DNA of 32,754 bases from the UHGV virus genome UHGV-0097046. One strand, 5' to 3'. Shown one piece after another: positions 4,490 through 21,478 of the stretch. Under the pieces are notes generated by a model that had not been told where the DNA came from, did not search any database, and saw nothing but the letters and a program-made list of their open reading frames with translations. Made by a program: the position numbers and the translations under genes. The stretch comes from a virus. Position 1 is the first letter of the stretch. Every line of letters begins with the position of its first letter.

Positions 4490-4497
4490 TAATTTTT

Positions 4498-4522
4498 AGC
4501 CTCGCCTCGTGCGGGGCTTTTT
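4498..4522 (+). terminator. Intrinsic terminator (agcctcgc-ctcgt-gcggggct + TTTTT)
   Basis: 8-bp stem with one G-U, 5-nt loop, T-run; same hairpin design as terminators at 11823 and 17766. Confidence 0.65.
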
Positions 4523-4637
4523 CATACCTACATCACGCGACTTTTCGCGCCATCTTCCACCAACTCGCCGATGGCGTTTTGGACAACCCTATAGATACAA
4601 AAAAGCCACTCCGAAGAGTGGCAAAGAGAATCAAAAC

Positions 4638-4871
4638 TCAAAAACCTGTTGCTTCTACGATCTGACCATCACCGATCTGAACATAGAATTTAATGTCTAA
4701 CTTCTTCATATTCTTATAGAATTGGGCAATTGAAATCCCATGTTCACTAAGAATCTGTTCTTTCGCTTCCTTACCACGATCCGCTGTATAATAAGCGTAG
4801 GCAATATCAGCCATTTGTTCAGCGTTAAAACGGGCAGGACGACCGCGAGTAGCTTTAGTAGTCATAGTCAT
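4638..4871 (-). CDS. Small Hin/resolvase-type HTH DNA-binding protein (75-77 aa) with N-terminal GRP basic arm
   Basis: TKATRGRPARF...GISIAQFYKNMKKLDIK; paralog of 1420..1602; GGAGA RBS suits the second ATG (start about 4865). Confidence 0.55.
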   Translation of the reverse strand: MTMTTKATRGRPARFNAEQMADIAYAYYTADRGKEAKEQILSEHGISIAQFYKNMKKLDIKFYVQIGDGQIVEATGF

Positions 4872-4903
4872 TTCTCCAAATTAAAGTGAATGTTCACTTT
4901 TAT

Positions 4904-5497: not shown

Positions 5498-5583
5498 ACA
5501 CCCTCCTTAAATCTTAATACCGTATTTATCAAAATATCAACAATTTAATAAATACCTTCATATTTCGTAATGAGGGTAATTAC

Positions 5584-7488
5584 ATGAAACTGATTTCTAA
5601 TAAGGCAAAATTAAAAAAGATTCTCAAAAATATCTCTGCTGCAATTCGTCCACCTAAAACCATGAAACCTAGCGAATGGGTAGAGGCTAATGTAGTTGCG
5701 ACCGATGGTGTTAAAGCCGGATCGCTAATTAAATTGCATCCCTTCCAACGTGGAATGATGGACGCGATCACCGAAGACCGTAGAAAAATTGTGTTTAAAT
5801 GTTCGGCACAGTTGGGTAAGACCATGATTCTTAACGGAATTATCTTCCATCGGATCGCGAGTAACCCTACTAATATCGGGGTGTTGCAATCGAATGTCCG
5901 CGAGTTGAATAGCTGGATCGCTGGTAAGGTGAAGCCAGTATTAGAGGCAACACCAGAATTAAAGGCGATGATCACCGACAAATCAGATCGCAATGCCGTT
6001 AACAACTCATCGATTATTCAGCTTCGTAACGGATCGTTTATGTATTTCATGTCGTTGAATAGTCCGTCACATCTTCGCGGTAAAACACTCCCTTTGATTA
6101 TTCTTGATGAAGTTGATGCGGCTGATGAGTCAGACGAAGGGAACCCGATCCAGCTAGCGGAACAACGCGCAACCACTTTCGGGGAAGATGCAAGGATCGT
6201 AATTGCTTCCACTCCAACCGCTCGTGATGGGGCGATTAACCAACAATGGGAACTCTCGGATAAGAGAAAATATCATGTCGTTTGCCAGCATTGCGGACAC
6301 AAGCACGTAATGGAATGGAGTAGAGTTTTCTTTGATTGGCATACGATTAACTGTAAATCACTGCCGAATCCAGATACTGCCGTTTATCGTTGCCCGTCAT
6401 GTGAAACTGATTGGACAGAAGGGGATCGCCTACGTGCTGTTGCTCAAGGTGAATGGATTGCTACAGAACCAAATGCGGAAGTAATCGGTTTTCATGCTAA
6501 CCGCCTTATGTCTCCGTTTAGTTCTATCCGTGCGTGTGTGGTGGACTTTGCTGATAGCTACGCGAATATGTCACTAGCAACGTTCTACAATACAGTCCTC
6601 GGTGAAACCTTCGATGATCTTAACGAAGATCGCACAGCCGACGAACTGGAAACGCTGAAAACTGATATTAGCCTAGACAATATTCCTGATGATGTACTGG
6701 CTCTGGTAGGTGGAGTTGACCAGCAAAAAGACCGTCTGGAATCTACCTTGCTGGGTATCTCTCGTAAGGGGATATGCGTAGTTGATCACCGATCATTCTA
6801 TGATGTGAACTGCGAACGCCACGAATCACCAGCATATGACCAGCTTTATAACTTCCTGAAAGCGAAATTCTATACCCGATCCGGTGAACGAATCCCGATG
6901 CTATCTGCTTTCGTGGACTCATCGAACGGACGAGCTACAAACGTGATCTACCGTTTTTGCACTAGGTGGCAAAACCTATGCGCCATTAAAGGCGCAAGTA
7001 ATGCTGATGCTCCAATCCTTCCGGCTAAGGACACAAGAACGGGCGGTTTTACTCTCAAAATTCTGGGCGTAAACAACCTTAAGACGATGATCCGTGAAAT
7101 GATTAACCGGAACTTGAGAGATGGCGATCCTCATACTGTCTTCCAGATTGGTGACGTTCCTGATGACTATTGCGAGCAATTGCTTTCTGAACAGTTGAAA
7201 CGGCAGGGTAATACCACACGTTGGGTAAAAGTTGGTCAGCAACGAAACGAGGCTCTCGACTGCCTGGCTTATTCCTATGCTGCTTCTCGCCATGTACTCA
7301 ATAAAATGTCATGGGAAAAACTCGAAGCCATCAAAGATAGTTTGAACCGTGAACCAGAAGAACCCGTAAAAGCTCCTGAAACGCAATCTGACGAGCAAAT
7401 CGAAGAAACTAAGCCAATCACACGACCACAACGTCAAAACATCGCCAGACGCCCAAATAGAGGCCGTAGCTGGGTAACATCGTTCTAA
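5584..7488 (+). CDS. Terminase large subunit, lambda gpA-like
   Basis: P-loop-like CSAQLGKT, Walker B LIILDEVD, and recognisable similarity to lambda gpA segments (EW..AN, PFQRG.M.A, HCGH zinc-ribbon-like, TVLGETF, RNEALDCLAYSYAA); first gene of rightward late operon. Confidence 0.88.
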   Translation: MKLISNKAKLKKILKNISAAIRPPKTMKPSEWVEANVVATDGVKAGSLIKLHPFQRGMMDAITEDRRKIVFKCSAQLGKTMILNGIIFHRIASNPTNIGVLQSNVRELNSWIAGKVKPVLEATPELKAMITDKSDRNAVNNSSIIQLRNGSFMYFMSLNSPSHLRGKTLPLIILDEVDAADESDEGNPIQLAEQRATTFGEDARIVIASTPTARDGAINQQWELSDKRKYHVVCQHCGHKHVMEWSRVFFDWHTINCKSLPNPDTAVYRCPSCETDWTEGDRLRAVAQGEWIATEPNAEVIGFHANRLMSPFSSIRACVVDFADSYANMSLATFYNTVLGETFDDLNEDRTADELETLKTDISLDNIPDDVLALVGGVDQQKDRLESTLLGISRKGICVVDHRSFYDVNCERHESPAYDQLYNFLKAKFYTRSGERIPMLSAFVDSSNGRATNVIYRFCTRWQNLCAIKGASNADAPILPAKDTRTGGFTLKILGVNNLKTMIREMINRNLRDGDPHTVFQIGDVPDDYCEQLLSEQLKRQGNTTRWVKVGQQRNEALDCLAYSYAASRHVLNKMSWEKLEAIKDSLNREPEEPVKAPETQSDEQIEETKPITRPQRQNIARRPNRGRSWVTSF

Positions 7489-7560
7489 TAACTCGCCGTC
7501 CTTCGGGGCGGCTTACTCCTAAATATTGTTAATCCAATAACAATTAAATAAGGGGTAATT

Positions 7561-8058
7561 ATGAGTTTAGAACTAATTCCCTTAGTAATTCGTAAAGGTG
7601 AAAAAATCACGCTGGCGAATGAAGAGGGTGTAACAATTCAGGTAGGAAATAGTAAAGGTATCATTTATCAGGTTGATGATACTCCGGCTAATCACGAGAT
7701 TAAAACCTTAGATTTTGCCGAGGGTAAATATACCATCGTAACCACTTTGGAAGAAGAACTGGTATCAATGCAGGAATTAACTGTATTGCCAGTATTCGCC
7801 AAACAATCCAAAAAAGAATATCTGCGCGAAACGATTGCTTTAATCGAAAATACCATCTATGCGCGCCTAGCCAATGATGAAAGTGCGTTATCTGCAATGA
7901 CGATAAAGGGTAATTCGTTTACCTACGAGTCAATTGCGGTTTTACAACAACTGAAAAGGGATTACGAAAAACAACTCGTAAAACTCATTCAGCAAGAACG
8001 GCGCAAGGCTGGCAATTACTCACCAATTACACCGATTAAAGTACGCTTAACTCGATAA
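7561..8058 (+). CDS. Hypothetical head-region protein (165 aa)
   Basis: ORF with TAAGGGGTAATT RBS context between terminase and portal; no family recognised. Confidence 0.55.
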   Translation: MSLELIPLVIRKGEKITLANEEGVTIQVGNSKGIIYQVDDTPANHEIKTLDFAEGKYTIVTTLEEELVSMQELTVLPVFAKQSKKEYLRETIALIENTIYARLANDESALSAMTIKGNSFTYESIAVLQQLKRDYEKQLVKLIQQERRKAGNYSPITPIKVRLTR

Positions 8059-8067
8059 GGATTTAAC

Positions 8068-9591
8068 ATGTTTAATTTTTTCAAACGCAAAAAAGATATG
8101 CCCGTGAATCCGGTTAAGAAAATCGGTATTCGCCAACACCGCAAATTATTTGTAGATCGCAAGATTGAAGAATTTACCAAAGACTTACATAAACGCTCTT
8201 TGGGATTGGTTGAAAGCGACCGCATTGAAGGAAGTATGGCGCGTAATGTCATCACTGGCAGCATTAACAGCGCGATTAAGGGGTCCGCATCACGTCTATA
8301 CAATCAAGGCCGTTATCTTGCGTTAAACACTTCTATTGGCTCCCGTTATTGCCAACACGTTATTGATTCCGTGGTAGGTACTGGCTTACAGCCTCGAACC
8401 TTCGTTATGAAAGGGGAAAAGCTGGACGCAACCACTAACACCGCTATTGAGAATGCTTTTTGGCGTTGGGCTAGCTCTCAGAAACGATTCTCGCGCATCG
8501 GAAAGATTAACTTCCTTGAATGCTTAAAGTTGATGGAAAAAGAGCGCGTGATGGGTGGTGATGCGTTTCTGGTACTCCATGAAGATGGTAAGGATCTGCA
8601 AGTATCCATTTATGGTGCGGATTGTGTTGATTGGTCAGATCAGCGCACCTTAGATAACGGTAATGTCGTTTACGCTGGCATCGAATATGAAGATGAAAAG
8701 CCCGTTGCATATTGGTTTAGGCGTCGTGACCTGTTTACTCAGTCCTTTACTGGCGAACGTGTACGAATCCCGGCGGAAAGAGTGCTGCATTACTTTATCC
8801 CTGGTACAGCCGACGCATTACGTGGTATTACTGATTTCTTGCCAATAATCAAAGATATAGCTCATCTTGAAGCGTTCCGCGAGACTGTAATAATCGGTAA
8901 GCGCGTGCACGCAAGCAGCATGGCCTTTATCACAAGCGATAAAGAAAATCAAGATTCATTTGATGTTGGTGAAGATGACACGGAAAACTATCAACCGCCA
9001 ACAATGATCACTGACTTCGAACCGGGTACTATCAATATACTGGAACCGGGGCAAGACGTTAAAACGGTACAATCAACTCAAGGCGGCGATGATTTCGAAA
9101 AATTCAATGAAGCAATGCTGACTTCTATTTCTATGGGTCTGTCTAGCTTTAAACAAGCTCTTACAGGAGATACAAGTTCTATTAACTACTCATCAGCAAA
9201 ATTCGGTCATAATATTGAATCCGCTCGCTTCAAGACGCATCAAGATCGCTTAGTTGATACTGTTATTCTTCCATTATTTGAGGCGTTTTTACGTCACGCG
9301 GTAATTAACTCAAAAATCAATGTTCGCATGACGCAGATCGATTCTATTTTGGATGCAACGACAATTATTAGACCTCGCGTTACGTCTATTGAACCGATCA
9401 AAGATATTCAGAGTGAAGTTCTGTTAATAGAAAGCGGATTGAAGTCTAAAGCTCAGGTCATTATGGAAATGGGTCAAGATCCGTCTCAGGTCTTTAAAGA
9501 AATTGAGGCAGAAAAACACATGCTAAATACATGCGTCGTGAGTGAGGGTGAGACTGAAAAAGAAAAATCTCCTGATACTCAAAATGAATAA
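8068..9591 (+). CDS. Portal protein, lambda gpB-like
   Basis: Position after terminase, size 507 aa, and similarity to lambda gpB central/C-terminal segments (F..F.EAML.SISMGLSSFKQAL...INYSSAKF). Confidence 0.8.
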   Translation: MFNFFKRKKDMPVNPVKKIGIRQHRKLFVDRKIEEFTKDLHKRSLGLVESDRIEGSMARNVITGSINSAIKGSASRLYNQGRYLALNTSIGSRYCQHVIDSVVGTGLQPRTFVMKGEKLDATTNTAIENAFWRWASSQKRFSRIGKINFLECLKLMEKERVMGGDAFLVLHEDGKDLQVSIYGADCVDWSDQRTLDNGNVVYAGIEYEDEKPVAYWFRRRDLFTQSFTGERVRIPAERVLHYFIPGTADALRGITDFLPIIKDIAHLEAFRETVIIGKRVHASSMAFITSDKENQDSFDVGEDDTENYQPPTMITDFEPGTINILEPGQDVKTVQSTQGGDDFEKFNEAMLTSISMGLSSFKQALTGDTSSINYSSAKFGHNIESARFKTHQDRLVDTVILPLFEAFLRHAVINSKINVRMTQIDSILDATTIIRPRVTSIEPIKDIQSEVLLIESGLKSKAQVIMEMGQDPSQVFKEIEAEKHMLNTCVVSEGETEKEKSPDTQNE

Positions 9592-9633
9592 CCCAACGGG
9601 GCGCAATGCCCCCAATAATTTTCAAGGTGATCT

Positions 9634-11688
9634 ATGACAACAAAACAATTCCGTCGTAGTGTTGCGGTAGATACCCCTGATTTTATCGAAGAAAAAGACG
9701 AACGAATTATTGAATTGGCTTTCTCAAGCGAGGCTCCTTATACACGTTATTACATGAATCAGGACGGCGAGCAAGTCGAATTAAAAGAGATTCTCGTACA
9801 CGATGAATCAGCGGTTGATCTATCCGTTTTAAACGAGACTAACGCAAGTCTTCTGTTTAATCACAATCTGGATCTTCATATCGGCAAGATTGTTCCTGGC
9901 TCCGCTCGTATTGACGAAGACCGTGTAGGTCGTTGCCTTGTCCAATTCTCCAAAGTAGGCCAACTGGCTAATGAATGCTTTGAGAAGGTAAAAGAGGGAA
10001 CACTTTCACAAGTTAGCGTCGGTTATAACGTTCTTGATGGCAAAGCCGATTTTAACAAAGGGATCTATTATGTTACACGCTGGCAACCTTTCGAATGCAG
10101 TCTTGTAACGTGTGCCGCAGATCCATTTAATGCGGGTGTTGGACGCTCTCTAAATACAGACAACGAAATGATTGTTTTGGAGGGTGAACAAGTGGAAGAC
10201 GAAATTAAAGATACTCCGGTCGAAGAAATTAAACCGGAAGATGAAGAAAAACGTTCCGAAGAAGAGAAAGAGGAACAAGAAAATGAAGAAATTGATTCCG
10301 ATTCTGGAAATAGTGCTGACAGTGGCGAAGATGTGGAAGAACCGCAAGAAGTAACGCCAGAAGAAAAAGAAGAACGTTCCGAAGATGAACCGGAAGAAAC
10401 AGAAGAACTAAATAAAGATACAGACGAGAACGACGAAACGGAAAATACATCCGAACCAGTCGAAGAAGAAAAGATTGAAGACGAAGAAAAACCGTTTGAA
10501 CGTTCTCGCGAAGATACCGCCGAAATTCGTGCTATCGGAAAACATCTAAATATCTCCGAAGACGTGATTGAAGCTGCAATTAAAGATAGTGCCGTGACTA
10601 TTGAAAATTTTAAAGAAAAAGCACGCGCACTAAATACTACCGAATCTAAAACTTTTGTTAAAGGAAAAATTACCATGACCGATACCATTAAAACTCTGGA
10701 ATCCCGTTTCGATCTTAATAAAGCTGTACGTGCAATCGCAGAGGGTAAAGCCCTGACTGGCGCAGAAGCTGAATATTCTCAGGAAGAAGCACGTAAAGCC
10801 GCAGCGCGTGGTCGTGCGCAGCGTTCTAACTCCGTATTCATTCCGGCGTCCGCTCTGCGTGCTAGCCAGAACATGGAATCTCTGAAACCAGTAGTTGGTG
10901 AAGAAATCCGCCATGATTGCTTCGTTGATATGATCATGGAACGTTCTATTCTGGGTAAATTGGGTGTGCGTACCATTAACGCAACTGGTCCTGTTTCTCT
11001 GCCGTCTCTGACTTCCAGCAATCTGGAAAACTTCGGTTTTGTTGCAGAAGGTCAATCCGCTGGTGAAGGTACTATTAAGTTTGCAGCGCAGCCGATGACT
11101 CTCAAGACTTTTAACGGAATTGTTCCTGTAACGCGTCAGGCTGCAATCACACTGCCCAATATTGGCGCTATCGTTGGTGAGCACATGCTGAAACACAGTG
11201 CTATCGCTCTGGAAAAAGCGATTCTGTCCAATGCTGCTAACACTAACGCTCGTGATGGTCTGACTAAGATCCTGACCGACGCTGGCAAAGTTAAACAGAT
11301 TGATTGGACCTATGCCGAGTTCCTGAAACTGGTAGCTGAACTGACCGACAAAGGTTATAACGAAGCGGATCTGGCATTTGCTACCCGTGGTGTTGTTAAA
11401 GCTGAACTGGCAGCGCAACTCAAAGCAGCTAATGTTCCGGGCTTCCTGGTAGAAGGCGATAAACTGGTTAACCGTCCGATCTATGGCTCTGGTGTAGTTG
11501 CTCAGGATACCATGCTGTTTGGTGACTTTAGCTCCCTTGTTGTTGCAGACTTCGGATCGCTGGAACTGGATTGCGACGATACCACAGGTCGCGCGGCTGG
11601 CAACCTGTACTTCCGTGTATGGGCTGATCTGGATTGGGCTGTTATGGACCATAGCGCACTGACCGTAGTTCAGAAAAAAGTTGACTGA
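9634..11688 (+). CDS. Fused prohead protease (HK97 S78-type) - acidic linker/scaffold-like region - HK97-fold major capsid protein (684 aa)
   Basis: N-terminal protease motifs (LLFNHNLDLHIGK; SQVSVGY; ECSLVTCAADP); residues ~185-300 extremely E/D-rich; C-terminal 380 aa with HK97-like capsid character (...GFLVEGDKLVNRPIYG...LYFRVWADLDWAVMD). Confidence 0.75.
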   Translation: MTTKQFRRSVAVDTPDFIEEKDERIIELAFSSEAPYTRYYMNQDGEQVELKEILVHDESAVDLSVLNETNASLLFNHNLDLHIGKIVPGSARIDEDRVGRCLVQFSKVGQLANECFEKVKEGTLSQVSVGYNVLDGKADFNKGIYYVTRWQPFECSLVTCAADPFNAGVGRSLNTDNEMIVLEGEQVEDEIKDTPVEEIKPEDEEKRSEEEKEEQENEEIDSDSGNSADSGEDVEEPQEVTPEEKEERSEDEPEETEELNKDTDENDETENTSEPVEEEKIEDEEKPFERSREDTAEIRAIGKHLNISEDVIEAAIKDSAVTIENFKEKARALNTTESKTFVKGKITMTDTIKTLESRFDLNKAVRAIAEGKALTGAEAEYSQEEARKAAARGRAQRSNSVFIPASALRASQNMESLKPVVGEEIRHDCFVDMIMERSILGKLGVRTINATGPVSLPSLTSSNLENFGFVAEGQSAGEGTIKFAAQPMTLKTFNGIVPVTRQAAITLPNIGAIVGEHMLKHSAIALEKAILSNAANTNARDGLTKILTDAGKVKQIDWTYAEFLKLVAELTDKGYNEADLAFATRGVVKAELAAQLKAANVPGFLVEGDKLVNRPIYGSGVVAQDTMLFGDFSSLVVADFGSLELDCDDTTGRAAGNLYFRVWADLDWAVMDHSALTVVQKKVD

Positions 11689-11817
11689 ACTCCTGTAGAA
11701 CCTTCTGAACCTTCCCCCGATTCGGGGGAAGAAAATCTGATTCCTAAACCGGAAGAAGAATCCCAGACGGTTACGGCGAAAGCCACAGCAAAACGAGGCC
11801 GCAAGCCTAAAGAATGA
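11689..11817 (+). other. In-frame open extension after the capsid TGA stop (42 codons, TPVEPSEPSPDSGEENLIPKPEEESQTVTAKATAKRGRKPKE): candidate programmed readthrough tail
   Basis: Same frame as 9634..11688, no stop for 42 codons, acidic Pro-rich linker then basic terminal peptide shared with the major tail extension; 9-bp-stem hairpin begins ~20 nt after the TGA. Confidence 0.45.
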
Positions 11818-11822
11818 TAATT

Positions 11823-11848
11823 AGCCCTGCCTAGTGCGGGGCTTTTTT
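11823..11848 (+). terminator. Intrinsic terminator (agccctgc-ctagt-gcggggct + TTTTTT)
   Basis: 8-bp stem, T6 run, directly after the readthrough extension stop. Confidence 0.65.
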
Positions 11849-11879
11849 GTATGTAAATACTCCATAAAGGGGGTAACTA

Positions 11880-12169
11880 TGTTCAAATTATCAGAATCAC
11901 AATTATCAAGAATGTTTAAGAGTGCTCCTGTATTTTCGGTGGAAGGTGGTAAATCAATTCGTGCTTATCATGAAATTACTACTACCGACGAATCGGGGGT
12001 AATGACAGAAACCGAATTTCTATTCTGTCGTGAGGGAGACTTAAATCAGGGTGATATTGTCATTGTAGAAAACCAGCGTTTCAAAGTTCAATACGTTAAG
12101 CGCAATGGTGATAATACCACTGATTGCTTTATTACTCTGGCAGGGGGTACACATGCTCGCTACCGTTAA
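11880..12169 (+). CDS. Head-tail connector/head completion protein candidate (96 aa)
   Basis: Start at ATG preceded by AAAGGGGGTAACT RBS (track ORF begins upstream at 11834 without RBS); position immediately after capsid gene. Confidence 0.45.
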
Positions 12170-12575
12170 TAATATGCCTAGACTGAAAATCAAACGCGCC
12201 TTGCAAGATATTATCGAACAAGATTTAGGTCTGGCTTTAAACGTAGAACAAACTCAGCAAGGTTTTAGTGATGACGTGGTTTGTTGGATTACTGGCATGA
12301 ATGAGACTTACACTAGGGTCCGTGGTGGTAATGCAATGCAAGCTGAATGCGTTATCGAAATGCAATTATATTCTCAGATTCATGAAACAAAAATCCATGA
12401 GGGTATTTGCCAGATAATCCAGATTCAGCCGGATAACCCACGTTTTAAAGATTTGGGCTTCTCTATTTCAGATATCACTCCAGTAGCCTCTAATACCGAT
12501 TATGACGATGATTCTAGTGATGGGGGTATCGTTGGGACACTTAGCCTTAAATTTTCTTATCTAGCGCGTTTTTAA
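12153..12575 (+). CDS. Head-tail joining/tail completion protein candidate (about 140 aa)
   Basis: ATG at 12153 preceded by AGGGGG, overlaps previous gene by 17 nt (translational coupling); position. Confidence 0.45.
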   Translation: MLATVNNMPRLKIKRALQDIIEQDLGLALNVEQTQQGFSDDVVCWITGMNETYTRVRGGNAMQAECVIEMQLYSQIHETKIHEGICQIIQIQPDNPRFKDLGFSISDITPVASNTDYDDDSSDGGIVGTLSLKFSYLARF

Positions 12576-12584
12576 GGGGTAATA

Positions 12585-13418
12585 ATGAATATTACACAAG
12601 ATAACTTAGATATTTTCACTGGATCACATGTTGAAGTGTCGATCTCTAACCAGATAGACAATCAGGTCGACTTTTTCGATCCTAGCTTTAGTTCTATGGA
12701 GAACATCGCAGCATTCCCTACGCTAACCGAATCCACAGAGATAGAAACTCTGGAAGAGTACGATCAGGACGCTACGGGGAAACTTGCTGGTTATCGTAGA
12801 CTGGAACCGACAACACTCACATTAAACCGTGTTCTTGACGATGAACATCAAGCAATGTTGATGAAAGCGGTAGAGGATAAAACACCTTTACGCTTCCGTA
12901 TGTTCTATGTTGTGAACTCTGGCTATAGTGCTGCTAACACTGGTTACTATGTCATCTATGACGCTTATGTCACTAGTCACAAAACCCGTGGCGCAGATAA
13001 CAAAGCTGTAACACTGGAATTTAAACTTGAACCAGATGGCGGGATTTTGGCAAGGGGTATTGCTACCGAAGGCCGGATCTTACGTCAGGGTGATTTTGGT
13101 ATCGGTGCTGGTGTAAATCCTTTCAGTGGTCCTATTGATAGTGAATCTCTGACAGGAAACCGTTTCGTAACTTACAAGGGAACTGCTAGCACTAACCCTT
13201 ATGGTGCTGATACATCGTTAATTCATCTTCAAGCTAATGAGCATGGCGCATGGCAATTAACCTGTAATACTTCTGGCGCACCGCGTTTACGCGTCCGAAA
13301 TATTCAGGAAAACGGTAAATCTGAATGGATTAAAGTCTATTCTACAAACGAGAAACCGACACCTAGCGAAATTGGCGCAGTGGCTAAGACTGACCGGATC
13401 GATTTCGGCGAATACTAA
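12585..13418 (+). CDS. Structural protein (277 aa) sharing the C-terminal motif EKPTPSEIGAV with the tail fiber
   Basis: TAAGGGGTAATA RBS; motif KPTP[SA]EIGA also occurs in ORF 13499..17107. Confidence 0.5.
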   Translation: MNITQDNLDIFTGSHVEVSISNQIDNQVDFFDPSFSSMENIAAFPTLTESTEIETLEEYDQDATGKLAGYRRLEPTTLTLNRVLDDEHQAMLMKAVEDKTPLRFRMFYVVNSGYSAANTGYYVIYDAYVTSHKTRGADNKAVTLEFKLEPDGGILARGIATEGRILRQGDFGIGAGVNPFSGPIDSESLTGNRFVTYKGTASTNPYGADTSLIHLQANEHGAWQLTCNTSGAPRLRVRNIQENGKSEWIKVYSTNEKPTPSEIGAVAKTDRIDFGEY

Positions 13419-13498
13419 GGATTCTCCTACCTAAATAAAACATGACGCGGGGAGGTTAACGCCTCCCTTATTCCTGTTTTATAGTGAGGTGATTCTAG

Positions 13499-16400
13499 AT
13501 GCAATCAATCCAATTTAAACGCACACAAACGGCTGGTAAAAAACCAACGCCGGAACAATTATCACAGGGTGAATTGGCTATTAACCTTGCTGATCACGTT
13601 CTGTATACCAAAGATAAAAATAACGCAGTAGTTCAAATCTCTGTTTCTCCAGAAAAACACGCTGAACTTAACACGAAAGTAGACCAGAATAAAACTAGCA
13701 CTGACCGTGTTATTGCTTCCAACAAACAAGAGGCCGCTAATAATCTGGCTAGTGTTAAAGCTGAACTGAATCAGACTATTACCGCTAAAGACACCGCAAC
13801 CAATAAGCGCATTGATGCTACCAACACCACTGTTAGTAACTTAACCCAGACAGTTACGGCAAATAAAACCGATGCCGACACTAAGATCAATAACCTTACG
13901 GGGACCGTATCTGCGAATAAGACCGCAATTGAAAGAACCGTTGCCGCAAACAAATCTGATGCAGATAGCAAACATGCAGCTTTAACGAAAACGGTCACTG
14001 ACAATAACACCGCGATTAACAACAAGGTTAATACCACTAACACCAACGTTAGCAACTTAACTAAAACTGTTACTGCAAATAAAACCGATGCAGATAACAA
14101 AATTTCTAGCTTAACTAGCACGGTTGCAGCTAACAAAACAGCGATTGAAAAGGTCGTTTCCGACAACAAGAAAGATGCTGATACTAAAATCAGTAACCTT
14201 ACTGGCACTGTGAATAGTAACCATACCGCTATTAACAACAAGGTAGACCAGAACAAATCATCGACCGATGCCGCAATTACAGCCGCCAACAAGCGAATTG
14301 ATGGTATTGAAGGTAGTGCTAACGCAGCATATATCAAGAAGAACACAAAGACCTATCACGGCGCGTATTTGTATAGCAAGACTGGTAACTATCTGGAAGA
14401 TTCAACCGCGAGAGATCTTAATTACTTCGGTGCATTCCGTACCAATGGTCAAGATGGACTCATGGATCTAACCCTTAACGTTCCTCACTCTTCCGGTAAA
14501 GCGCATGGTCGAGGATTTACTTTCCGTTATGCGTCTGGCGGATCTCGTGTTGAAACCTATGGTTTTGATGCTCAGGGACAAAAAGCGTTTAGCTATAAAA
14601 TGTATCACGAAGGGGATAAACCGACTCCTGCTGAAATTGGCGCATATACCAAAGGCGAAATTGATAAGATGTTTATTAAAAATGTCACAATGTCTGTTCC
14701 TTCTGGTAGTGAATCCCGTGCTTATTTCAAGATTGCTACGGCTACGATCCCACAAAATGGTCGTATGGTAATGCTTCGTATCTTCGGTGGTAATGGTTAT
14801 AACGTTAACTCCTATGATCAGGTTGATTTCCTTGAAATTGTTATCCGTTCCGGTAACAATAACCCGAAAGGCGTTAGTATTGCTGCTTATCGTCGAAACT
14901 CTTTGAACGTTCATCAAGTATTTGCGGTTAATACTTCCGGTGATAACTACGACATTTACGTTAACTACGGTCGTTATACTGATAACGTTATTGTCGAATA
15001 TGGTAAGACTAGCGGTGTTTCACTGACTGTTCATGACACCCCAGCTATGACTAACGTTAAGCCGTCTACTGGTGTTACAGATGGACGTGTTATTACAATG
15101 TTCAACACCGAAAACAAGGCCGGAACGTTGATGTTTGATAATAACGGACAGGGTACATATGATATTGTCAGTTTGAATAACGATTCAGGTACTGGTAAAA
15201 AATATCTTCGTAAATTCCGTAGTAAAGCCGCAGAAACAATCTGGCATGAAACTGTTCAAGGTAACGTTTATCGTTTAGCGACTGGTACTACCGATTCTAG
15301 CGAAGTTCTACGAATCACTGGTCGCACCATGTTTACTGGTAAAGGTGTATTTGATGCCGGACAAAACGTTCTTAGATTAGAGCGTCCTAGTAATCAATCA
15401 AACTATATTGAATGGCAAGACCGCCGCAATGGTGCTAATGCTCGTCAAGGTTGGATTGGTTTTGGTAGTGCTGAAACAAATAACTTCCAATGGTATAGCG
15501 ATCAGGGGAAAAACTCATTTCAGCTAGAAGCTAACGGTCAATGCTCTATTACCACTGGTGCAACTAAAATTGTATATACAAACGGCGAGTATGTAGCTGC
15601 TAACTCAAATGCATTCCGTATGATTTACGGCAATTATGGTGCATTTTGGCGCAATGACTCCGCAAAAGTTTATCTTCTGTCAACGGCTGAAAACGATAAG
15701 TTTGGTGGTTGGAATACTTATCGACCATTCATTTATGATCTGACTTCCGGTAACGTTCAATTAGGCGGTGATGGTAACGAAGATGCATTAACGTTAGAAC
15801 GTGCAAGCCGTGCCGCTCGTTTTAGTAATGACGTTTACATTAAGAAAGGTTTTTTGACTTTCGACGCTGGGCGTTCTGGATCGCGTGATTATATTCGATT
15901 TAATCATTGGGGCGATAGCAACAACGCCCGTGATAACGTTTTATACCTCGAAGACAGCAAAGGTCGCCATTTCAGCACCGAACGTAATATGGCTACAGGT
16001 GGACTAAAGGCATATTTCTTAGGTGATCTTGAAGTTGCTGGTCAAATGAGATGGGGTAAGAATACCGGACAATCTAGCTTCAATATTCGTGCATGGGGTA
16101 ATGATACTCGTAAACAAGTATTAGAATGCGCAGATGAAAGCGGCTGGCATTTCTACACACAGCGTGCTGGCGGTCCTGGTACTACCGCAATCGAGTTTAG
16201 CGTAAACGGTAAAATTAACGCTCCCCAACTGTCTATTAGTCAGGATGCAACCATTCCTAAGTTTAATAGCGGTTTTGGTGTTGGTGTTGCTAACGGATTG
16301 GGTGGAAATTCTATTGTTTTAGGCGATAGTGATACTGGATTTAAACAAAACGGTGATGGTGTCCTTGATACCTACGCTAATAACGTTAATGTTGTTCGTC

Positions 16401-17107
16401 ACACATCTGGCGGCATTACCTTTAACCGTCGTGTTGTTGTTGCTAACAAAAATGGTTTAGGTTATTCCGATATCTCTGATGTAACTCGTGACCGTGCTCC
16501 ATTCTTGGTTAACATGGATAGTATTAAGGGGTCTGGTGCATATTTCCCTATTATCGCTGGCTATAGTAACTTAGGTGATGTTGGTTATCGTCAGTCCTTC
16601 GAGTTTGGTTGGACGGGTAGCGGTTCGACTCACGGTTGGCGTACTGGTATTATCCGTATGCGTGGCGATAACGCCAACGGGCAGCAAGCACGCTGGGAAT
16701 TTACTATGGATGGTGACTTTACCGCAGGTCGTAACGGTAGCTTTAACGATGTTTACATTCGCTCTGACTCCCGTTTGAAGATTAACAAGGAAGAATTACA
16801 GGACGGCGCATTAGAGAAAGTAAACTCCCTGAAAGTCTACACCTACGATAAAGTTAAATCTCTTTCAGATGACACAGTGATTAAACGCGAAGTAGGTATT
16901 ATTGCTCAGGATCTGGAAGAAGTGTTGCCGGAAGCAGTAGGTATTCAATCCACCGAAGATCCAGAACAACCGGAAGCAATTAAGACTATTTCTAACTCTG
17001 CTGTTAATGCCTTGATTATTAAAGCTATTCAGGAAATGGACGCCAAATATCAAGCTAAGATTGAAGCATTGACTAAAGAGATTGCCGAACTCAAAGCAAC
17101 TAAATAA
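13499..17107 (+). CDS. Tail fiber protein (1202 aa) with N-terminal anchor motif, ~21-aa tandem repeats and C-terminal intramolecular chaperone (peptidase S74-like) domain
   Basis: N-terminus KKPTPEQLSQGELAINLADHVLYTKD (fiber-anchor-like); repeats T-V-x-ANKTDAD-x-KI-x-xLT-x-TV-x-ANKTAIE; C-terminal SDSRLK...GIIAQDLEEVLPEAV...coiled coil typical of auto-cleaving chaperone domains of endosialidase and T5 L-shaped fibers. Confidence 0.85.
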   Translation: MQSIQFKRTQTAGKKPTPEQLSQGELAINLADHVLYTKDKNNAVVQISVSPEKHAELNTKVDQNKTSTDRVIASNKQEAANNLASVKAELNQTITAKDTATNKRIDATNTTVSNLTQTVTANKTDADTKINNLTGTVSANKTAIERTVAANKSDADSKHAALTKTVTDNNTAINNKVNTTNTNVSNLTKTVTANKTDADNKISSLTSTVAANKTAIEKVVSDNKKDADTKISNLTGTVNSNHTAINNKVDQNKSSTDAAITAANKRIDGIEGSANAAYIKKNTKTYHGAYLYSKTGNYLEDSTARDLNYFGAFRTNGQDGLMDLTLNVPHSSGKAHGRGFTFRYASGGSRVETYGFDAQGQKAFSYKMYHEGDKPTPAEIGAYTKGEIDKMFIKNVTMSVPSGSESRAYFKIATATIPQNGRMVMLRIFGGNGYNVNSYDQVDFLEIVIRSGNNNPKGVSIAAYRRNSLNVHQVFAVNTSGDNYDIYVNYGRYTDNVIVEYGKTSGVSLTVHDTPAMTNVKPSTGVTDGRVITMFNTENKAGTLMFDNNGQGTYDIVSLNNDSGTGKKYLRKFRSKAAETIWHETVQGNVYRLATGTTDSSEVLRITGRTMFTGKGVFDAGQNVLRLERPSNQSNYIEWQDRRNGANARQGWIGFGSAETNNFQWYSDQGKNSFQLEANGQCSITTGATKIVYTNGEYVAANSNAFRMIYGNYGAFWRNDSAKVYLLSTAENDKFGGWNTYRPFIYDLTSGNVQLGGDGNEDALTLERASRAARFSNDVYIKKGFLTFDAGRSGSRDYIRFNHWGDSNNARDNVLYLEDSKGRHFSTERNMATGGLKAYFLGDLEVAGQMRWGKNTGQSSFNIRAWGNDTRKQVLECADESGWHFYTQRAGGPGTTAIEFSVNGKINAPQLSISQDATIPKFNSGFGVGVANGLGGNSIVLGDSDTGFKQNGDGVLDTYANNVNVVRHTSGGITFNRRVVVANKNGLGYSDISDVTRDRAPFLVNMDSIKGSGAYFPIIAGYSNLGDVGYRQSFEFGWTGSGSTHGWRTGIIRMRGDNANGQQARWEFTMDGDFTAGRNGSFNDVYIRSDSRLKINKEELQDGALEKVNSLKVYTYDKVKSLSDDTVIKREVGIIAQDLEEVLPEAVGIQSTEDPEQPEAIKTISNSAVNALIIKAIQEMDAKYQAKIEALTKEIAELKATK
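13790..14260 (+). repeat. Tandem in-frame coding repeats (~63 nt units) within the tail fiber gene
   Basis: Repeated ACCGATGC(C/A)GA(C/T)A...AA(A/T)ATC...CTTAC blocks encoding the TANKTDADxKIxNLT units. Confidence 0.6.
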
Positions 17108-17163
17108 TAAAAGTCGGGGGACTAGTTCCCCCGTAATAACAATTTTAATTAAGGGGTAATTCT

Positions 17164-17634
17164 ATGTCTCAATTTAATGATATTTTTACTGGTGGTCTGG
17201 TAAGTCTGTTCTATCACGCTGATACCACTAACACCGCTCTCGATCACTCCGGTTACGAAGAAATTAAAGAGTGTGCTGGTTTTCCTGAAACTGGTATCGA
17301 GCGCGGTACTGTAGAAGTTAAATCCTTCTCTTCTCAGTATAACCGTAAGCTGGTAGGGAAACTGAACGTTCCTGATCTGACTCTGACCGTTAACTACATC
17401 CCAGGCGATGCGGTGCACGAGAAGCTCATTAAAGCTGCCGAAGACGGTACTCGAATTCAGATTAAGATTGAATACTATGTTGATGCAGCAAAACAGACTG
17501 GTATTCGCACCGCTTTCAACGGCTTTATTTCTAAAGTTGCTATGAACGGTGGCGATGAAGAAGTTGTAACCAAAGAGTTTACCTTCGCGGTGGACGGAAA
17601 GCCGATCAAACAGGAAATCTTCACTGCCGGATGA
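17164..17634 (+). CDS. Major tail tube protein, lambda gpV N-domain-like (156 aa)
   Basis: Similarity to the lambda gpV tube domain (EDGTRIQIKIEY / FNGFISKVA / EVVTKEFTFAVDGKP versus gpV EGDTRAYKIRF / FRGWVSSIG / EVITRTVKVTNVGRP); AAGGGGTAATTCT RBS; position before G/T chaperones. Confidence 0.75.
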   Translation: MSQFNDIFTGGLVSLFYHADTTNTALDHSGYEEIKECAGFPETGIERGTVEVKSFSSQYNRKLVGKLNVPDLTLTVNYIPGDAVHEKLIKAAEDGTRIQIKIEYYVDAAKQTGIRTAFNGFISKVAMNGGDEEVVTKEFTFAVDGKPIKQEIFTAG

Positions 17635-17760
17635 ACTAACGAAGAACTTCCTTTAATAGAACCGGAACCACTACCGGAACATGAAGCGGTGGTGATTCCA
17701 GAAGTAGAAGAAGTTACGGCGAAAGCCACAGCAAAACGAGGCCGCAAGGCTAAGAATTAA
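17635..17760 (+). other. In-frame open extension after the major tail TGA stop (41 codons, TNEELPLIEPEPLPEHEAVVIPEVEEVTAKATAKRGRKAKN): candidate programmed readthrough tail
   Basis: Same frame as 17164..17634; last 36 nt encoding VTAKATAKRGRK identical to 11770-11805; followed by the same terminator design. Confidence 0.45.
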
Positions 17761-17765
17761 TTTTA

Positions 17766-17793
17766 AGCCCTGCCTTAATGGTGGGGCTTTTTT
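17766..17793 (+). terminator. Intrinsic terminator (gccctgcc-ttaat-ggtggggc + TTTTTT)
   Basis: About 9-bp stem with G-U pairs, T-run. Confidence 0.6.
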
Positions 17794-17808
17794 ATTGGAG
17801 TAATCAAA

Positions 17809-18315
17809 ATGGCAAATGTCGTTAATAAGCCCGGCTGGGTCGGATCATCTGCTGTATCGGTGACGGGTAAGCGATGGATGAAAGAAGCATTAACAGCTTT
17901 AAAAGTTCCGGCTCCGCGTAATATGTCGGCAATGGCTGGTCGTGGTATGGATACGGTTGTAGCTACTGCATCGTGGTCTACTTCATTGGGTAATAACTGG
18001 GGTGTAACTGCTTCAAACTATCCTGTTTCCGGTATGCAAAGCAAAGGATCTATGGAGAACCCCGAAAACGTGGGCGTAGGCCGTCTAATTGGCGTTATCG
18101 TTGGTCAATTCAATGGCGGTACTCCTACTATGGCTGTATATCTCCAGAACGGTAGAGCGGGGAATATAACCGTTAATTTGGGTGGTGCTGCTGTCACTGT
18201 TCCTTATAACAGTATGCAAAGTGGTTTTCATTACTACTGGTTAAGCAATCCTCCGGCAGCTTTCCTCAATAACATTAAGAAGACTGGCACTAAGCAGACT
18301 TTGAAAATCTCTTAA
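17809..18315 (+). CDS. Hypothetical tail-region protein (168 aa), Gly/Ser/Thr-rich, possibly beta-sandwich
   Basis: ORF between major tail gene and chaperone genes; no family recognised. Confidence 0.5.
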   Translation: MANVVNKPGWVGSSAVSVTGKRWMKEALTALKVPAPRNMSAMAGRGMDTVVATASWSTSLGNNWGVTASNYPVSGMQSKGSMENPENVGVGRLIGVIVGQFNGGTPTMAVYLQNGRAGNITVNLGGAAVTVPYNSMQSGFHYYWLSNPPAAFLNNIKKTGTKQTLKIS

Positions 18316-18357: not shown

Positions 18358-18666
18358 ATGAATATTAATGAAATGCTGAAAGCTCTTTCTCCGAAACGCG
18401 AATCTCTGACCATCGGTGGATTCACTTTCTATGCTCGCCCTATGTCAGTAAAAGAATTTAACGAACATGTTTTCAATACCGATAAAGATGACCGTGATGA
18501 ACGTTCTATTCTTCGTTGTATTGAAGATGAAGACGGTAAACCAGTATTTGAATCTATGGAACAAGTTAAGGCACTGTATACTAACGTCCGCAGTGAATTA
18601 ATCGGTTTGGTTGCTCAAGCGTCATTGATGCAAGATCCGACAGTAATTGAAAACGAGGTAAAGTAA
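18358..18666 (+). CDS. Tail assembly chaperone, gpG-like (102 aa)
   Basis: Position immediately upstream of tape measure; GAGGAAACAAGA RBS; followed by a -1-frame ORF lacking its own RBS. Confidence 0.55.
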   Translation: MNINEMLKALSPKRESLTIGGFTFYARPMSVKEFNEHVFNTDKDDRDERSILRCIEDEDGKPVFESMEQVKALYTNVRSELIGLVAQASLMQDPTVIENEVK

Positions 18667-18695
18667 ACCCGCTTCTGAATTTCTATTTTCGGCAA

Positions 18696-19037
18696 ATGAT
18701 GCGATCGGGGCTTAGTAAAGATGAAATGGATAATATGCCAATCACTCTGTTTTGGAAATTATACATTTTCGACACCTACTTAGAACCACAAAGCCCCGCG
18801 TTTCATGATATGCAGAATGCGATGTTGCAATATTCCATGTATATGACGTCGCAAGGAATGACACGCGAAACTGCACGCAAACTCAAGCCTAGCCAATTCC
18901 AATTAATTAGAGAAGAAAAACTCTTTAAAACTAAAGAAGAACTGGAAGAAATTGCACGCAAGAAAGAAGAAGAACGTAAAGCGGCAATGCTGAACATGTT
19001 TGATCCATCTTTGCTTGAGAAACTCAGAAGCGGTTAA
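18696..19037 (+). CDS. gpT-like segment, probably expressed mainly as G-T fusion via -1 frameshift
   Basis: In -1 frame relative to 18358..18666; frame open from 18651; no Shine-Dalgarno before ATG 18696. Confidence 0.45.
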   Translation: MMRSGLSKDEMDNMPITLFWKLYIFDTYLEPQSPAFHDMQNAMLQYSMYMTSQGMTRETARKLKPSQFQLIREEKLFKTKEELEEIARKKEEERKAAMLNMFDPSLLEKLRSG

Positions 19038-19048: not shown

Positions 19049-21478
19049 ATGACAAAACATATAGTAACAATAGAAGGGGATAATAAAGGTCTAAGGAGAA
19101 GTACCAATGAAGCCGCCGACCTTCTCGATAGTTTGTCTGAAAAGGCAAGTAATATTGATTTTGGTGGTGGCTTATCTGGTCTGACTGGATCTCTTCGTGG
19201 GATCGCTGGCTCTGCTGGTTTGGCTGCTGGTGGTATCGGCTTAGTTGCGACCGCAGTGGTTGCAGCCGCTAAAGCTGGCGCGGAATACGTTAAACAATAT
19301 TCAGAAGTATCTAAGGCGACCGGACTCTCGATTGAATCCCTTCAAAGACTGGAAAAGGAATTTTCTGGTACTGGCCTAACAGTTGAAAAATTCGGTGATA
19401 TCAACAAAGACACCTTAGATAAGATGGGTGATGCATGGGCTAACGGTGGTGGTATTGCTGATGACTTAGAATCGGTTGGTCTTAAGTTAGAAAACTATGC
19501 TCACTTCATGACAGATCCGCAAGGTGGTATGAAAGCGGCGATCCAAGTGTTCTATGACATGAAGAAAGCCGGAAAATCAATGGCTGAAATCAAGTTCATG
19601 ATGGAATCTTTAGCCAGTGATTCAAGCCATATGACCAGCCAGCTTGAGAAATATAATAGTGCTCAAGAGGCGATGATCGCTATTCAGAATCAATCTGTTA
19701 ACGTCACCGAAGAAAACGCTAAAAAATATGATAAATTTTCTCAGAATATTAATAAGCTGGAAAATAACCTGAAAGGCGCAGCCATGACCATTACTGGTCC
19801 TTTGGTTGATAGCTTAAACTGGTTATTTGAATGGTTTAATATTGATTGGGAAAAGAGTTCTCTATTCAGGGCATTAGACCGTCTGAATAAAGAAGGTAAG
19901 ACCGCAACTGGTGGTATTCTTAACACCAACCATAAAGACGCTCAAAAGATTATTGACAAGTACAATAAAGAAAAGCGTTGGAATAATCTAGCAGATTGGG
20001 AAAAGGCCGCGATCCGTGGTGCTGGTGTCGATCCTCGTACTGCTGGCTTTGATGTAGAAGGATTTAAGAAACGTTTTGGTGGGTCTTATAAGAAAAATGG
20101 TGCTCTGATTGTCGTAGATGCTGGTGAACATCTGACACGCAAGGCAGATCCTAACACTGATTTAACTCTACCAAATAAACCAGTAAGACCAGAATCATTG
20201 GGTAAATCTGGCAACGAGAAGAAAGCCGAGGAAGAAGCACGCAAGAAAGCGGAAGAGGCAGCTAAAAAGGCTAAGGAAGCCGCAGAAAAAGCACAGAAAG
20301 AACGTGAGGATGCAATCAAGCGTCTGAATGCACTTGATGTTAAATTGCAAGGGCAAGTTGCAGCGTCTATTGCTTCTCAAAACAAGCAGTTAGAAGCCAG
20401 CTTGAAAGATTTGGATACTGCTTTAGATCTGGGCTTAATCTCTCAGCAAGACGCAGCCGCGAAACGCCAATCCTTAATCGATCAGAATACTGAAAACGTA
20501 TACAAGATGATTTTAGGTGCTGATCCGGTTGATGCTCTGAATGCTTTAACACAATTGCAACAAATCAGGGATAATGAGTTAGAAAGCCATAAACGGTTAC
20601 TTGATGGTAAGGCTATCTCCTACGAAGAATATATGCGTCGTGTGAATGATACCGAACAAAGTTATTCGCAGATTGAAGATTCTTTGCATGGAATGGATGG
20701 TTTTAAAACCAATCAGTTGACCAATAGCTTAGACTATCAGGACTCAAATAATCCGTTTGCTAAATTTAATGCAATCGATAAAGAGAAATCGGAAGCCGAA
20801 CAAGATTATAAAACCGATAAACTCAAGATTGATGGGATCACCGATCCGGCTAAACGGATGGAAGAATTAGAAAAACTCAATGAAAACCATCAAAAACGAA
20901 TGGCTGCAATTGAGAAGAAATATGCTGATGCTCGCCAGTCAATAGCCGATGATATGTACGGCGGTTTTGCTGCTGCAATGACTCTCTTCGGGCAGGAAAA
21001 CACTAAAGCTATGCAGATGGCTTTCAATGCTCATAAAGCATTCTCTATCGGACAAGCGACGGTGAACATGTGGACGGCTGCTACCGATGCATGGAACGAT
21101 CCGACCAACGTAACCACAGGTCAAAAAATCGCTGCTGCTGCATTGGCTGTTTCTCAGAACATGGGGAACATCGCAAACATCAAGTCTACTAACGTTAGCG
21201 GTATGGCTCATGATGGTATCGATAATATCCCTCGTGAGGGTACATGGTTGCTTGATAAGGGTGAACGAGTAGTTGATCAGCGTACTAACGGTGATTTGAA
21301 AGACTTCCTTGCTGCTCAAAAATCAGGCGGTGGCAACTCTCAGCCGATTGAAGTTAACGCACCTTTGAACATTAACGGCAACGTTAATAGCTCAGACAAG
21401 ATGGTCATGGATGCTATCAAACGTCACGCTAAGTTAGTTGCTCAGGCGGTAGAAGACGCACAACGCCGTAAGATGTAA
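19049..21478 (+). CDS. Tail tape measure protein (809 aa)
   Basis: Size, position after the G/T pair, Gly/Ala-rich hydrophobic segment (GGGLSGLTGSLRGIAGSAGLAAGGIGLVATAVVAAAKAGA), extended coiled-coil/charged regions. Confidence 0.8.
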   Translation: MTKHIVTIEGDNKGLRRSTNEAADLLDSLSEKASNIDFGGGLSGLTGSLRGIAGSAGLAAGGIGLVATAVVAAAKAGAEYVKQYSEVSKATGLSIESLQRLEKEFSGTGLTVEKFGDINKDTLDKMGDAWANGGGIADDLESVGLKLENYAHFMTDPQGGMKAAIQVFYDMKKAGKSMAEIKFMMESLASDSSHMTSQLEKYNSAQEAMIAIQNQSVNVTEENAKKYDKFSQNINKLENNLKGAAMTITGPLVDSLNWLFEWFNIDWEKSSLFRALDRLNKEGKTATGGILNTNHKDAQKIIDKYNKEKRWNNLADWEKAAIRGAGVDPRTAGFDVEGFKKRFGGSYKKNGALIVVDAGEHLTRKADPNTDLTLPNKPVRPESLGKSGNEKKAEEEARKKAEEAAKKAKEAAEKAQKEREDAIKRLNALDVKLQGQVAASIASQNKQLEASLKDLDTALDLGLISQQDAAAKRQSLIDQNTENVYKMILGADPVDALNALTQLQQIRDNELESHKRLLDGKAISYEEYMRRVNDTEQSYSQIEDSLHGMDGFKTNQLTNSLDYQDSNNPFAKFNAIDKEKSEAEQDYKTDKLKIDGITDPAKRMEELEKLNENHQKRMAAIEKKYADARQSIADDMYGGFAAAMTLFGQENTKAMQMAFNAHKAFSIGQATVNMWTAATDAWNDPTNVTTGQKIAAAALAVSQNMGNIANIKSTNVSGMAHDGIDNIPREGTWLLDKGERVVDQRTNGDLKDFLAAQKSGGGNSQPIEVNAPLNINGNVNSSDKMVMDAIKRHAKLVAQAVEDAQRRKM

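Follow-up and report, generated by a model that had tools for sequence, protein, structure and literature searches.

The stretch of DNA considered here, the 32,754-nucleotide UHGV virus genome UHGV-0097046 (hereafter the window), holds the structural region of an Escherichia coli siphovirus-type prophage, and two of its structural genes, the major tail tube gene and the fusion gene for prohead protease, scaffold and major capsid protein, close with TGA followed by A and are trailed by an open frame that continues their own (Table 1). An earlier note, made from the sequence of the window, had drawn attention to a TGA-ACT stop and a 41-codon open extension after the tube gene and to the same design at the capsid gene, and direct reading bears this out at both places. 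The tube gene ends GGA TGA ACT, after which frame 0 is open for 41 codons (TNEELPLIEPEPLPEHEAVVIPEVEEVTAKATAKRGRKAKN) up to a TAA and neither of the alternative frames stays open beyond 8 codons; at the capsid gene the corresponding letters are GAC TGA ACT, and 42 open codons follow as far as TGA TAA. Each extension consists of an acidic, proline-rich linker and a polybasic tip, and each is followed by an intrinsic terminator. Across the window TAA closes 30 of the 34 genes and TGA three, two of these being the tube and capsid genes. At least 42 open non-gene codons follow the stop in two further genes of the 34, in agreement with the chance of about 13% that the note had given for an open 42-codon stretch, so that the open frame alone is not rare; the significant part is its combination with TGA-A, with a shared tip and with the comparative pattern described below. 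The 36 identical nucleotides reported after the capsid and tube genes are present (none of 100 shuffles gave such a pair), and the resemblance between the two regions reaches 63 nt at 87% identity. The terminal peptide, which had been called identical, is so over 12 residues (VTAKATAKRGRK) and then reads PKE in one copy and AKN in the other (window tips KRGRKAKN and KRGRKPKE, the tip peptide being given as VTAKATAKRGRKAKN), and the terminators, also called identical, have their stem arms in common and differ in loop and length.

Relatives of the window tie the extension closely to its stop codon. More than 90 related copies are available, from E. coli prophages together with one Providencia relative and one Salmonella-like relative, and each of their 34 distinct extensions follows a capsid or tube gene that ends in TGA-A and continues its frame. 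TGA-A is constant over 19 distinct immediate contexts (6 at tube genes, 13 at capsid genes), and the codon that precedes it varies. When IMG/VR was scanned with the DNA of the tip, 56 of 56 sites were in frame after TGA-A of one of these two genes and closed with TAA, TAATAA or TGATAA, the capsid copies ending on the tandem stops TAATAA or TGATAA, and a metagenome scan in which the stop position was entered as NNN recovered TGA in five of five copies. An independent scan with the capsid-family alignment covered 79 loci at 25-98% identity: all 21 extension bearers have TGA-A, and of the 58 capsid genes lacking an extension 46 have TAA, the remainder having stops with more stops almost immediately after. 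Related tube genes without an extension (L104, L105, L106, L108 and L215) close with TAATAA or TAA; in two E. coli relatives among them, L104 and L105, the capsid extension is present and the tube gene ends TAATAA directly at the terminator, and a Salmonella relative has no extension on either gene, both of which stop with TAA. A composition screen of about 1100 distinct open reading frames (ORFs) in all fetched loci found the design nowhere but after a capsid or tube gene ending in TGA-A.

The association extends to sequences that have diverged. After the capsid gene of the Providencia relative stands TGA ACT and then TNEELPEEEPLPVATEKSTKRRKSK, with the nucleotides diverged and the frame kept. 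The capsid protein P0030 ends ...IQKGE without a basic tail, and from that C-terminus TGA-A and an extension were predicted; its contig (L215) reads TGA AAT and then NNEELPEEIPVATAKATKRGRKPKA, with a different terminator downstream, which confirmed the prediction. A second IMG/VR pattern scan, built on the start of the extension, gave one chance match (L213) and no new diverged examples, and a scan of genome contigs with the capsid alignment returned 14 distant relatives only, all without an extension.

Within the extensions the changes that have accumulated respect the frame. The nine distinct lengths are each divisible by 3, and the seven gap classes inside the extensions (3, 3, 6, 6, 15, 27 and 48 nt, with indels of 6 and 15 nt in the tube linker) are all multiples of 3, whereas in the next 75 non-coding nucleotides none of the eight gap classes (1, 1, 1, 1, 1, 1, 2 and 5 nt) is (Fisher p ~1.6e-4). 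Nonsense codons, which the earlier note had named as what would speak against a coded tail, occur in none of the 34 distinct variants. Nucleotide diversity (pi) in the extension is 0.10-0.15 and in the flanking terminator and spacer 0.04, a divergence 2-4 times faster, and while the sequence changes the charge of the linker is kept at -4 to -9 (-6 to -9 in tube variants) and that of the tip at +5 to +7. Many relatives carry short constitutive Ala/Lys tails, with no stop, at the same C-termini (AEAKSKA, AKAPASK and KAKAPAGK on the capsid protein; SRK, ARK and VVTAKP on the tube protein). Salmonella-type capsid proteins end ...IRVIQK and then a short basic tail (AEARSK, VEASKAK or EEARAKK), and the Edwardsiella tube protein runs stop-free into a fused tail, ...VIPEAVAAKEK (...PLATYHMNVIPEAVAAKEK). 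These constitutive forms argue that the tail is an old protein feature of the group, of which the E. coli clade has a long version behind a putatively leaky stop.

The tube protein itself is recognizable by its fold. A PDB sequence search with it gave no match and the fold search alone succeeded: the AlphaFold2 (AF2) model matched the lambda gpV tube structures 8k36, 7t4f and 7t2e in Foldseek with E ~3e-7, and 2k4q as well, the whole range of E values being 3e-7 to 7e-4. The tube domain is modelled confidently and the extension as coil (predicted local distance difference test, pLDDT, 46-60), and Pfam has no domain for the extension, Ig-like or FN3 included, with E values as high as 10 admitted. 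The analogy with gpV that the earlier note had drawn holds structurally, since the tube domain matches gpV and ends where the linker to the external Ig domain of gpV starts. The point of attachment is thus the same, and both additions are presumed to be accessory, non-essential surface appendages; the Ig domain of gpV, however, is constitutive, folded and present on every subunit, whereas the extension of the tube protein here would be sub-stoichiometric, disordered and charge-based.

From these observations we consider it likely that the capsid and tube extensions are translated by readthrough of UGA, yielding minority isoforms with a charged, disordered tether. The earlier note had proposed a recoded C-terminal tail for the tube protein and a counterpart for the capsid protein, and the two regions behave in this way in their association with TGA-A, their in-frame indels, their charge pattern and the confirmed prediction for P0030. 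Probably a few percent of the capsid and tube proteins bear such an arm, flexible and acidic with positive charge at its tip. Each of the two genes would end in a weak UGA-A at which Trp-tRNA(Trp) outcompetes release factor 2 (RF2) at a few percent, and ribosomes that read through would insert tryptophan and add 41 codons (tube) or 42 codons (capsid) as far as a strong stop just before the terminator; with tryptophan at the stop, the junction peptides would be QEIFTAG-W-TNEELPLIEPEPLPEHEAVVIPEVEEVTAK in the tube protein and VD-W-TPVEPSEPSPDSGEENLIPKPEEESQTVTAK in the capsid protein. Extended and normal subunits would then co-assemble, leaving a handful of tethered capsid and tube subunits on each virion: with several hundred subunits presumed for a capsid and about two hundred for a tube, readthrough at a few percent would give a handful of tails on each. 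The capsid C-terminus is taken to be external in the HK97 fold, from what is known of display on T7 gp10B. The tether, an acidic, proline-rich spacer of 12-28 residues (-4 to -9) and then a Lys/Arg-rich tip (+5 to +7), would project outward where lambda gpV bears its Ig-like domain. As to the level that might be expected, UGA readthrough by Trp-tRNA(Trp) in E. coli K-12 is about 2% at 37 C, rising to 4% at 25 C (PMC10570021), and Qbeta A1 is produced at about 5% by readthrough of UGA (PMC7026636).

The relation between the two tips bears on how the extensions arose. Most relatives have unlike tips on the two proteins (for example KKQRKTKE or KKVGRPPKAK for the capsid and KRSRKAKD for the tube), and the KRGRK form, typical of tube copies, is found on the capsid protein only in the capsid family of the window, a distribution that points to gene conversion between the copies. 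The 36-nt identity had been read in the earlier note as selection at the protein level, but the two copies have no synonymous differences, which points instead to recent gene conversion or shared ancestry. The opening (T/N)NEELPE and its DNA are common to the tube, the short capsid and the Providencia capsid extensions, and this pattern in the sequences suggests that the whole cassette may have moved between genes, its leaky stop included. Such a cassette would open with a leaky UGA-A(C/A)U-AAC-GAA and continue through a spacer rich in acidic residues and proline and a polybasic tip to strong stops and a terminator. A broader proposal, which we offer tentatively and regard as doubtful in its full form, is that a portable readthrough cassette, moved between capsid and tube genes, gives enterobacterial siphoviruses a few tunable electrostatic tethers on head and tail, the number of which would be set by UGA readthrough in the host (through temperature and cyclic AMP), so that adhesiveness would report the state of the producer cell.

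The comparison of the tip with an AT-hook, also made in the earlier note, did not survive. The window tips have no Pfam match, and only the KKVGRPPKAK variants approach the AT-hook family (PF02178), at 13.4-14.2 bits and under the cut-off of 17.4. AT-hooks and histone H1-like tails do resemble the tips in being rich in Lys, Arg and Ala, and some variants have GRP flanked by basic residues; what the variants have in common, however, is a net polybasic charge of +5 to +7 and not GRP, and the exterior of a virion offers no evident context for binding DNA. Because the charge of the tip is conserved and the GRP core is not, electrostatic adhesion is favoured. The best guess is that the tips, as sub-stoichiometric surface tethers, bind polyanions non-specifically, and weak electrostatic adhesion to lipopolysaccharide (LPS) phosphates, capsule, mucin or extracellular DNA would be the most likely role. 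The adhesion role proposed for the Ig-like decorations that other phages add by frameshifting would match that of the tether.

Several points weigh against readthrough as the explanation and need to be set beside the evidence for it. The copies are for the most part from E. coli prophages closely related to one another and so are non-independent, and the freedom from nonsense codons is a moderate test (P ~0.07 for the capsid extension and ~0.21 for the tube extension). By codon position, pi is 0.094, 0.062 and 0.12 in the tube extension and 0.055, 0.053 and 0.28 in the gene body, so that the third-position excess expected under purifying selection is absent from the extension, which argues that amino-acid constraint is weak outside the charge pattern. 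The extension also stands out as conserved where the capsid cassettes beside it have been swapped and share 37-39% identity, and part of this conservation may stem from recombination at module boundaries and not from function. RefSeq annotates nothing between the tube and adhesin genes, and no extension. The only database protein that holds the extension, P0001 (198 aa, fused; L102, ENA contig k141_243218), was considered as a sense-codon variant and set aside as an artefact of gene calling under code 4, its DNA having TGA. In wild E. coli, where RF2 is fully active, readthrough may be lower than in K-12. The occurrence and level of readthrough, tryptophan as the inserted residue, the external capsid C-terminus and the binding function are all points that we infer. 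In Edwardsiella, finally, a tip-like sequence follows the capsid gene in the -1 frame, and frame 0 shuts after 9 codons. In that locus (L109 2740-2860, an Edwardsiella tarda prophage) the capsid stop is TGA TAC and the tip-like VIPTGREEVSVKSGRKPKTDN is encoded in a -1 frame that is open from about 13 codons upstream of the stop and holds a GTA AAG (A_AAG) slip motif; either the cassette has decayed at this capsid end or readthrough has given way there to -1 frameshifting.

Some of these features would also be found if the extension were an untranslated 3' sequence at a module boundary, a recombination linker with its terminator and the relic of a coding tail, with TGA merely the stop of the module. 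A conserved island common to two capsid families that differ so widely, a third-position diversity below that of the gene bodies and without excess, and the 36 nt identical between the two copies of the window all fit such a relic, which we nonetheless regard as unlikely: frameshifts and stops would be expected in it, yet seven of seven indel classes are in frame against none of eight in the neighbouring non-coding DNA, TGA never becomes the preferred TAA in more than 90 copies though the flanking codons vary, the charge pattern persists under sequence change, and the Providencia relative and L215 retain the design despite diverged sequence and a different terminator. The proximity of the terminator raises the further thought that readthrough ribosomes disturb its hairpin, the leakiness of the stop setting transcription into the downstream genes and the peptide being irrelevant. 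At both genes the stop of the extension lies 5-6 nt ahead of the terminator stem (4 nt between), both are the most abundant structural genes with lower-copy genes downstream, and a strictly open frame with weak amino-acid constraint is what attenuation of this kind would leave. It would not explain the split between acidic linker and basic tip, the constitutive Ala/Lys tails of relatives or the need for a spacer of 25-45 codons; relatives without the extension put TAATAA equally close to the terminator, and readthrough of a few percent alters termination very little. We think it still less probable than a relic.

Both extensions contain a predicted RNA hairpin of uncertain role (Table 1). That of the tube is unconserved, being weakened by natural substitutions (CTA to CAG) and missing from the TF-type extension, and the short capsid extensions lack the hairpin found in the capsid extension of the window and have CCGGAA-GAAA-UUCCGG in its place. 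A stable hairpin stands 15-30 nt after UGA in every extension type (window, L105, L108), the forms by type being CUUCCCCCGAUUCGGGGGAAG, CCGGAA-GAAA-UUCCGG, CCGGAAG...CUUCCGG and GGAACCACUACCG...CGGUGGUGAUUCC. These hairpins may be a by-product of Pro-Glu codon pairs (CCGGAA being complementary to TTCCGG), or may slow ribosomes or RNA polymerase; as stimulators of readthrough they were rejected, lying at this distance beyond the ribosome entry channel and varying between variants with no covariation. Two other candidate routes to an extended product were set aside. The A6 run before the capsid stop (CAG AAA AAA GTT) is out of phase for a -1 heptamer and absent in the other capsid family, and a slip there is unneeded, the capsid stop and its extension sharing one frame. 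Translation is unlikely to start afresh inside the extension, as ATG, GTG and TTG are all missing in frame from that of the capsid gene.

It is very improbable that the conserved core is an RNA element (a small RNA derived from the 3' untranslated region, a processing or stability hairpin, or a protein-binding site) whose frame is incidental. The core GGCGAAAGCCACAG, a GGC-GAAA-GCC mini-hairpin, is indeed the same, nucleotide for nucleotide, in every E. coli copy, the regions are more stably folded than shuffled versions (z -2.9 to -3.6), and some hairpin follows UGA in each extension type; an Rfam search, however, gave no family match, its sub-threshold scores being driven by the terminator, and hairpin sequence and position vary, with natural substitutions that weaken pairing and no compensatory changes. 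The core is altered in Providencia (GAGAAATCCACA) and shorter by 3 nt in L215 with the frame retained, and an RNA element would leave both the TGA-A association and the in-frame indels unexplained. Dedicated decoding of UGA, by selenocysteine, a suppressor tRNA or an alternative code in which TGA is Trp, can be regarded as effectively refuted. The code-4 gene call that yielded the fused P0001 from a relative would suit it, but the DNA of that protein carries TGA, the host is E. coli and the long genes are all intact under code 11, no tRNA gene is present in the window or in the 40-kb prophage region, there is no Rfam match resembling a selenocysteine insertion sequence (SECIS), and the first 30 nt after UGA are unstructured, the later hairpins being unconserved.

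Related sequence is present in 22 of 5426 complete E. coli genomes; among isolated phages, neither region had a DNA match in INPHARED. In one of the strains, E. coli HCP5S3_I4 (NZ_CM149869.1; L103 11199-14589), the tube region is 100% identical to the window and the capsid gene is broken by the insertion sequence IS2; further copies of IS1, IS2 and IS5 lie in the same prophage, so that this copy is defective. The nearest capsid protein from an isolated phage, that of Escherichia phage DCP80, has 37% identity and no extension. Its record (L192, PQ671644.1, 141 kb, classed as Straboviridae) starts, over 1-16780, with terminase, portal and protease-capsid genes of lambda-like type that are related to those of this prophage group, and may be a chimeric assembly; after the capsid TAA it has a small ORF, MSLGAEALDAAPVKKSKSASG, with its own Shine-Dalgarno sequence. 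Within the window the fibre gene sits between the 277-aa tube-like paralogue and the true tube gene, with the adhesin gene after the latter (12585-18315), an interleaving of fibre module and tube genes that is unusual for a siphovirus. Chaperone gene G ends GTA AAG TAA (window 18640-18700) and the -1 frame into T is open only about 5 codons upstream of the stop; a G-T frameshift, if it occurs as expected, would need A_AAG directly before the stop and not a classical heptamer. The sole other TGA-terminated gene of the window, a 77-aa ORF on the minus strand (4638-4871), begins MTMTTKATRGRPARF, an AT-hook-like arm resembling the tip motif, and the 34-codon frame after its stop looks non-coding.

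Table 1. Positions in the window of the two genes, their putative extensions and neighbouring features.
Feature	Position	Strand	Description and basis
Large terminase	5584-7488		
Portal	8068-9591		
Prohead protease-scaffold-major capsid fusion gene	9634..11688	+	684 aa, span including TGA stop; Pfam Peptidase_S78 and Phage_capsid; phrog_617; PDB 8gta major capsid protein, E 3e-12
Putative leaky stop context, capsid	11686..11691	+	TGA ACT, TGA at 11686-11688; TGA-A invariant in 13 distinct capsid contexts
Capsid linker	11689..11772	+	Acidic, proline-rich; 28 codons, net charge -7; indels of 48 and 27 nt among relatives, all in frame
Hairpin in capsid extension	11711..11731	+	CUUCCCCCG-AUU-CGGGGGAAG, strong, role uncertain; folding
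Identical 36-nt repeat, copy 1	11770..11805	+	Sequence comparison
Capsid polybasic tip	11773..11814	+	TAKATAKRGRKPKE; direct reading, charge comparison across relatives
Tandem stops closing capsid extension	11815..11820	+	TGA TAA; direct reading
Intrinsic terminator after capsid extension	11823..11849	+	Terminator search; also placed at 11823-11843
Tube-like protein	12585-13418		277 aa; phrog_158 in N-terminal half
T4-like long fibre	13499-17107		1202 aa; Gp34_trimer and S74 chaperone domain
Major tail tube gene	17164..17634	+	156 aa, span including TGA stop; PF16460, 29.0 bits (cut-off 28.4); phrog_158 major tail protein, E 7e-22
Putative leaky stop context, tube	17632..17637	+	TGA ACT (UGA then A); TGA-A invariant in 6 distinct tube contexts
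Tube linker	17635..17715	+	Acidic, proline-rich; 27 codons, net charge -9, 5 Pro; in-frame indels among relatives; predicted coil
Hairpin in tube extension	17664..17699	+	-20 kcal/mol, z -3.6; role uncertain
Identical 36-nt repeat, copy 2	17713-17748	+	Sequence comparison
Tube polybasic tip	17716..17757	+	TAKATAKRGRKAKN, 14 codons, net charge +6; common to capsid extension
Terminal stop of tube extension	17758..17760	+	TAA; direct reading
Intrinsic terminator after tube extension	17765..17795	+	10-bp stem (17765-17789), 6 GC pairs, T-run
gp38-like adhesin	17809-18315		
Tail chaperones G/T	between adhesin and tape measure		
Tape measure	19049-21478		

Parallels with recoded structural genes of other phages are instructive. 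In Qbeta (Allolevivirus) a leaky UGA ends the major capsid gene, Trp-tRNA(Trp) reads it at a few percent in E. coli, and the extended protein, A1, is incorporated at low copy number, as is proposed here; the stop context is also UGA-A, and the A1 extension opens with a proline-rich spacer. The features by which readthrough is recognized in A1, a UGA stop of leaky type and a downstream ORF in the same frame, open across relatives, are those found behind the capsid and tube genes. Qbeta, however, is a single-stranded RNA phage, and the domain gained by A1 is folded, measures about 196 aa and is needed for infectivity, whereas the window belongs to a double-stranded DNA siphovirus with two structural genes concerned, each with a disordered tail of 25-45 aa that bears a polybasic tip and ends at a terminator. 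The frameshift extensions of T7/T3 gp10B, the Listeria phages PSA, A118 and A500, SPP1 gp17.1* and Lactobacillus phage A2 are alike in that the most abundant structural genes are recoded at their 3' ends, giving a minority isoform with a surface-exposed C-terminal segment; they differ in using a -1 or +1 shift at slippery sites, usually adding Ig-like or FN3 domains, whereas the extensions of the window follow a stop codon in frame 0, lack a fold and have the same tip on both genes. To our knowledge, functional stop-codon readthrough in bacteria and their viruses is a textbook matter for Qbeta only, and tailed phages, as far as we know, extend their structural proteins by frameshifting and not by readthrough. 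Searches of full-text literature turned up no account of readthrough for a tail tube gene, and a review of recoding gives Qbeta A1 and Bacillus subtilis SacB as the only cases of readthrough (PMC7026636). The earlier note had taken a C-terminal tag common to two virion proteins to be undescribed, which needs qualification: in the Listeria phages PSA, A118 and A500 frameshifting lengthens capsid and tail proteins alike within a single phage (PMC5009743), and it is the readthrough route and the shared short tip that appear new.

If the capsid and tube extensions are indeed translated by readthrough, this would be a use of stop codons undocumented for tailed DNA phages, and a second, independent and easily manipulated example of readthrough in E. 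coli. Gene callers would then systematically overlook such tails, none of which is annotated by RefSeq here. Head and tail of a siphovirus would offer a natural short display site. In terms of virion architecture, short, disordered, charged tethers would be able to replace the Ig-like decorations of other phages, and the composition of the virion could follow the translational fidelity of its host.

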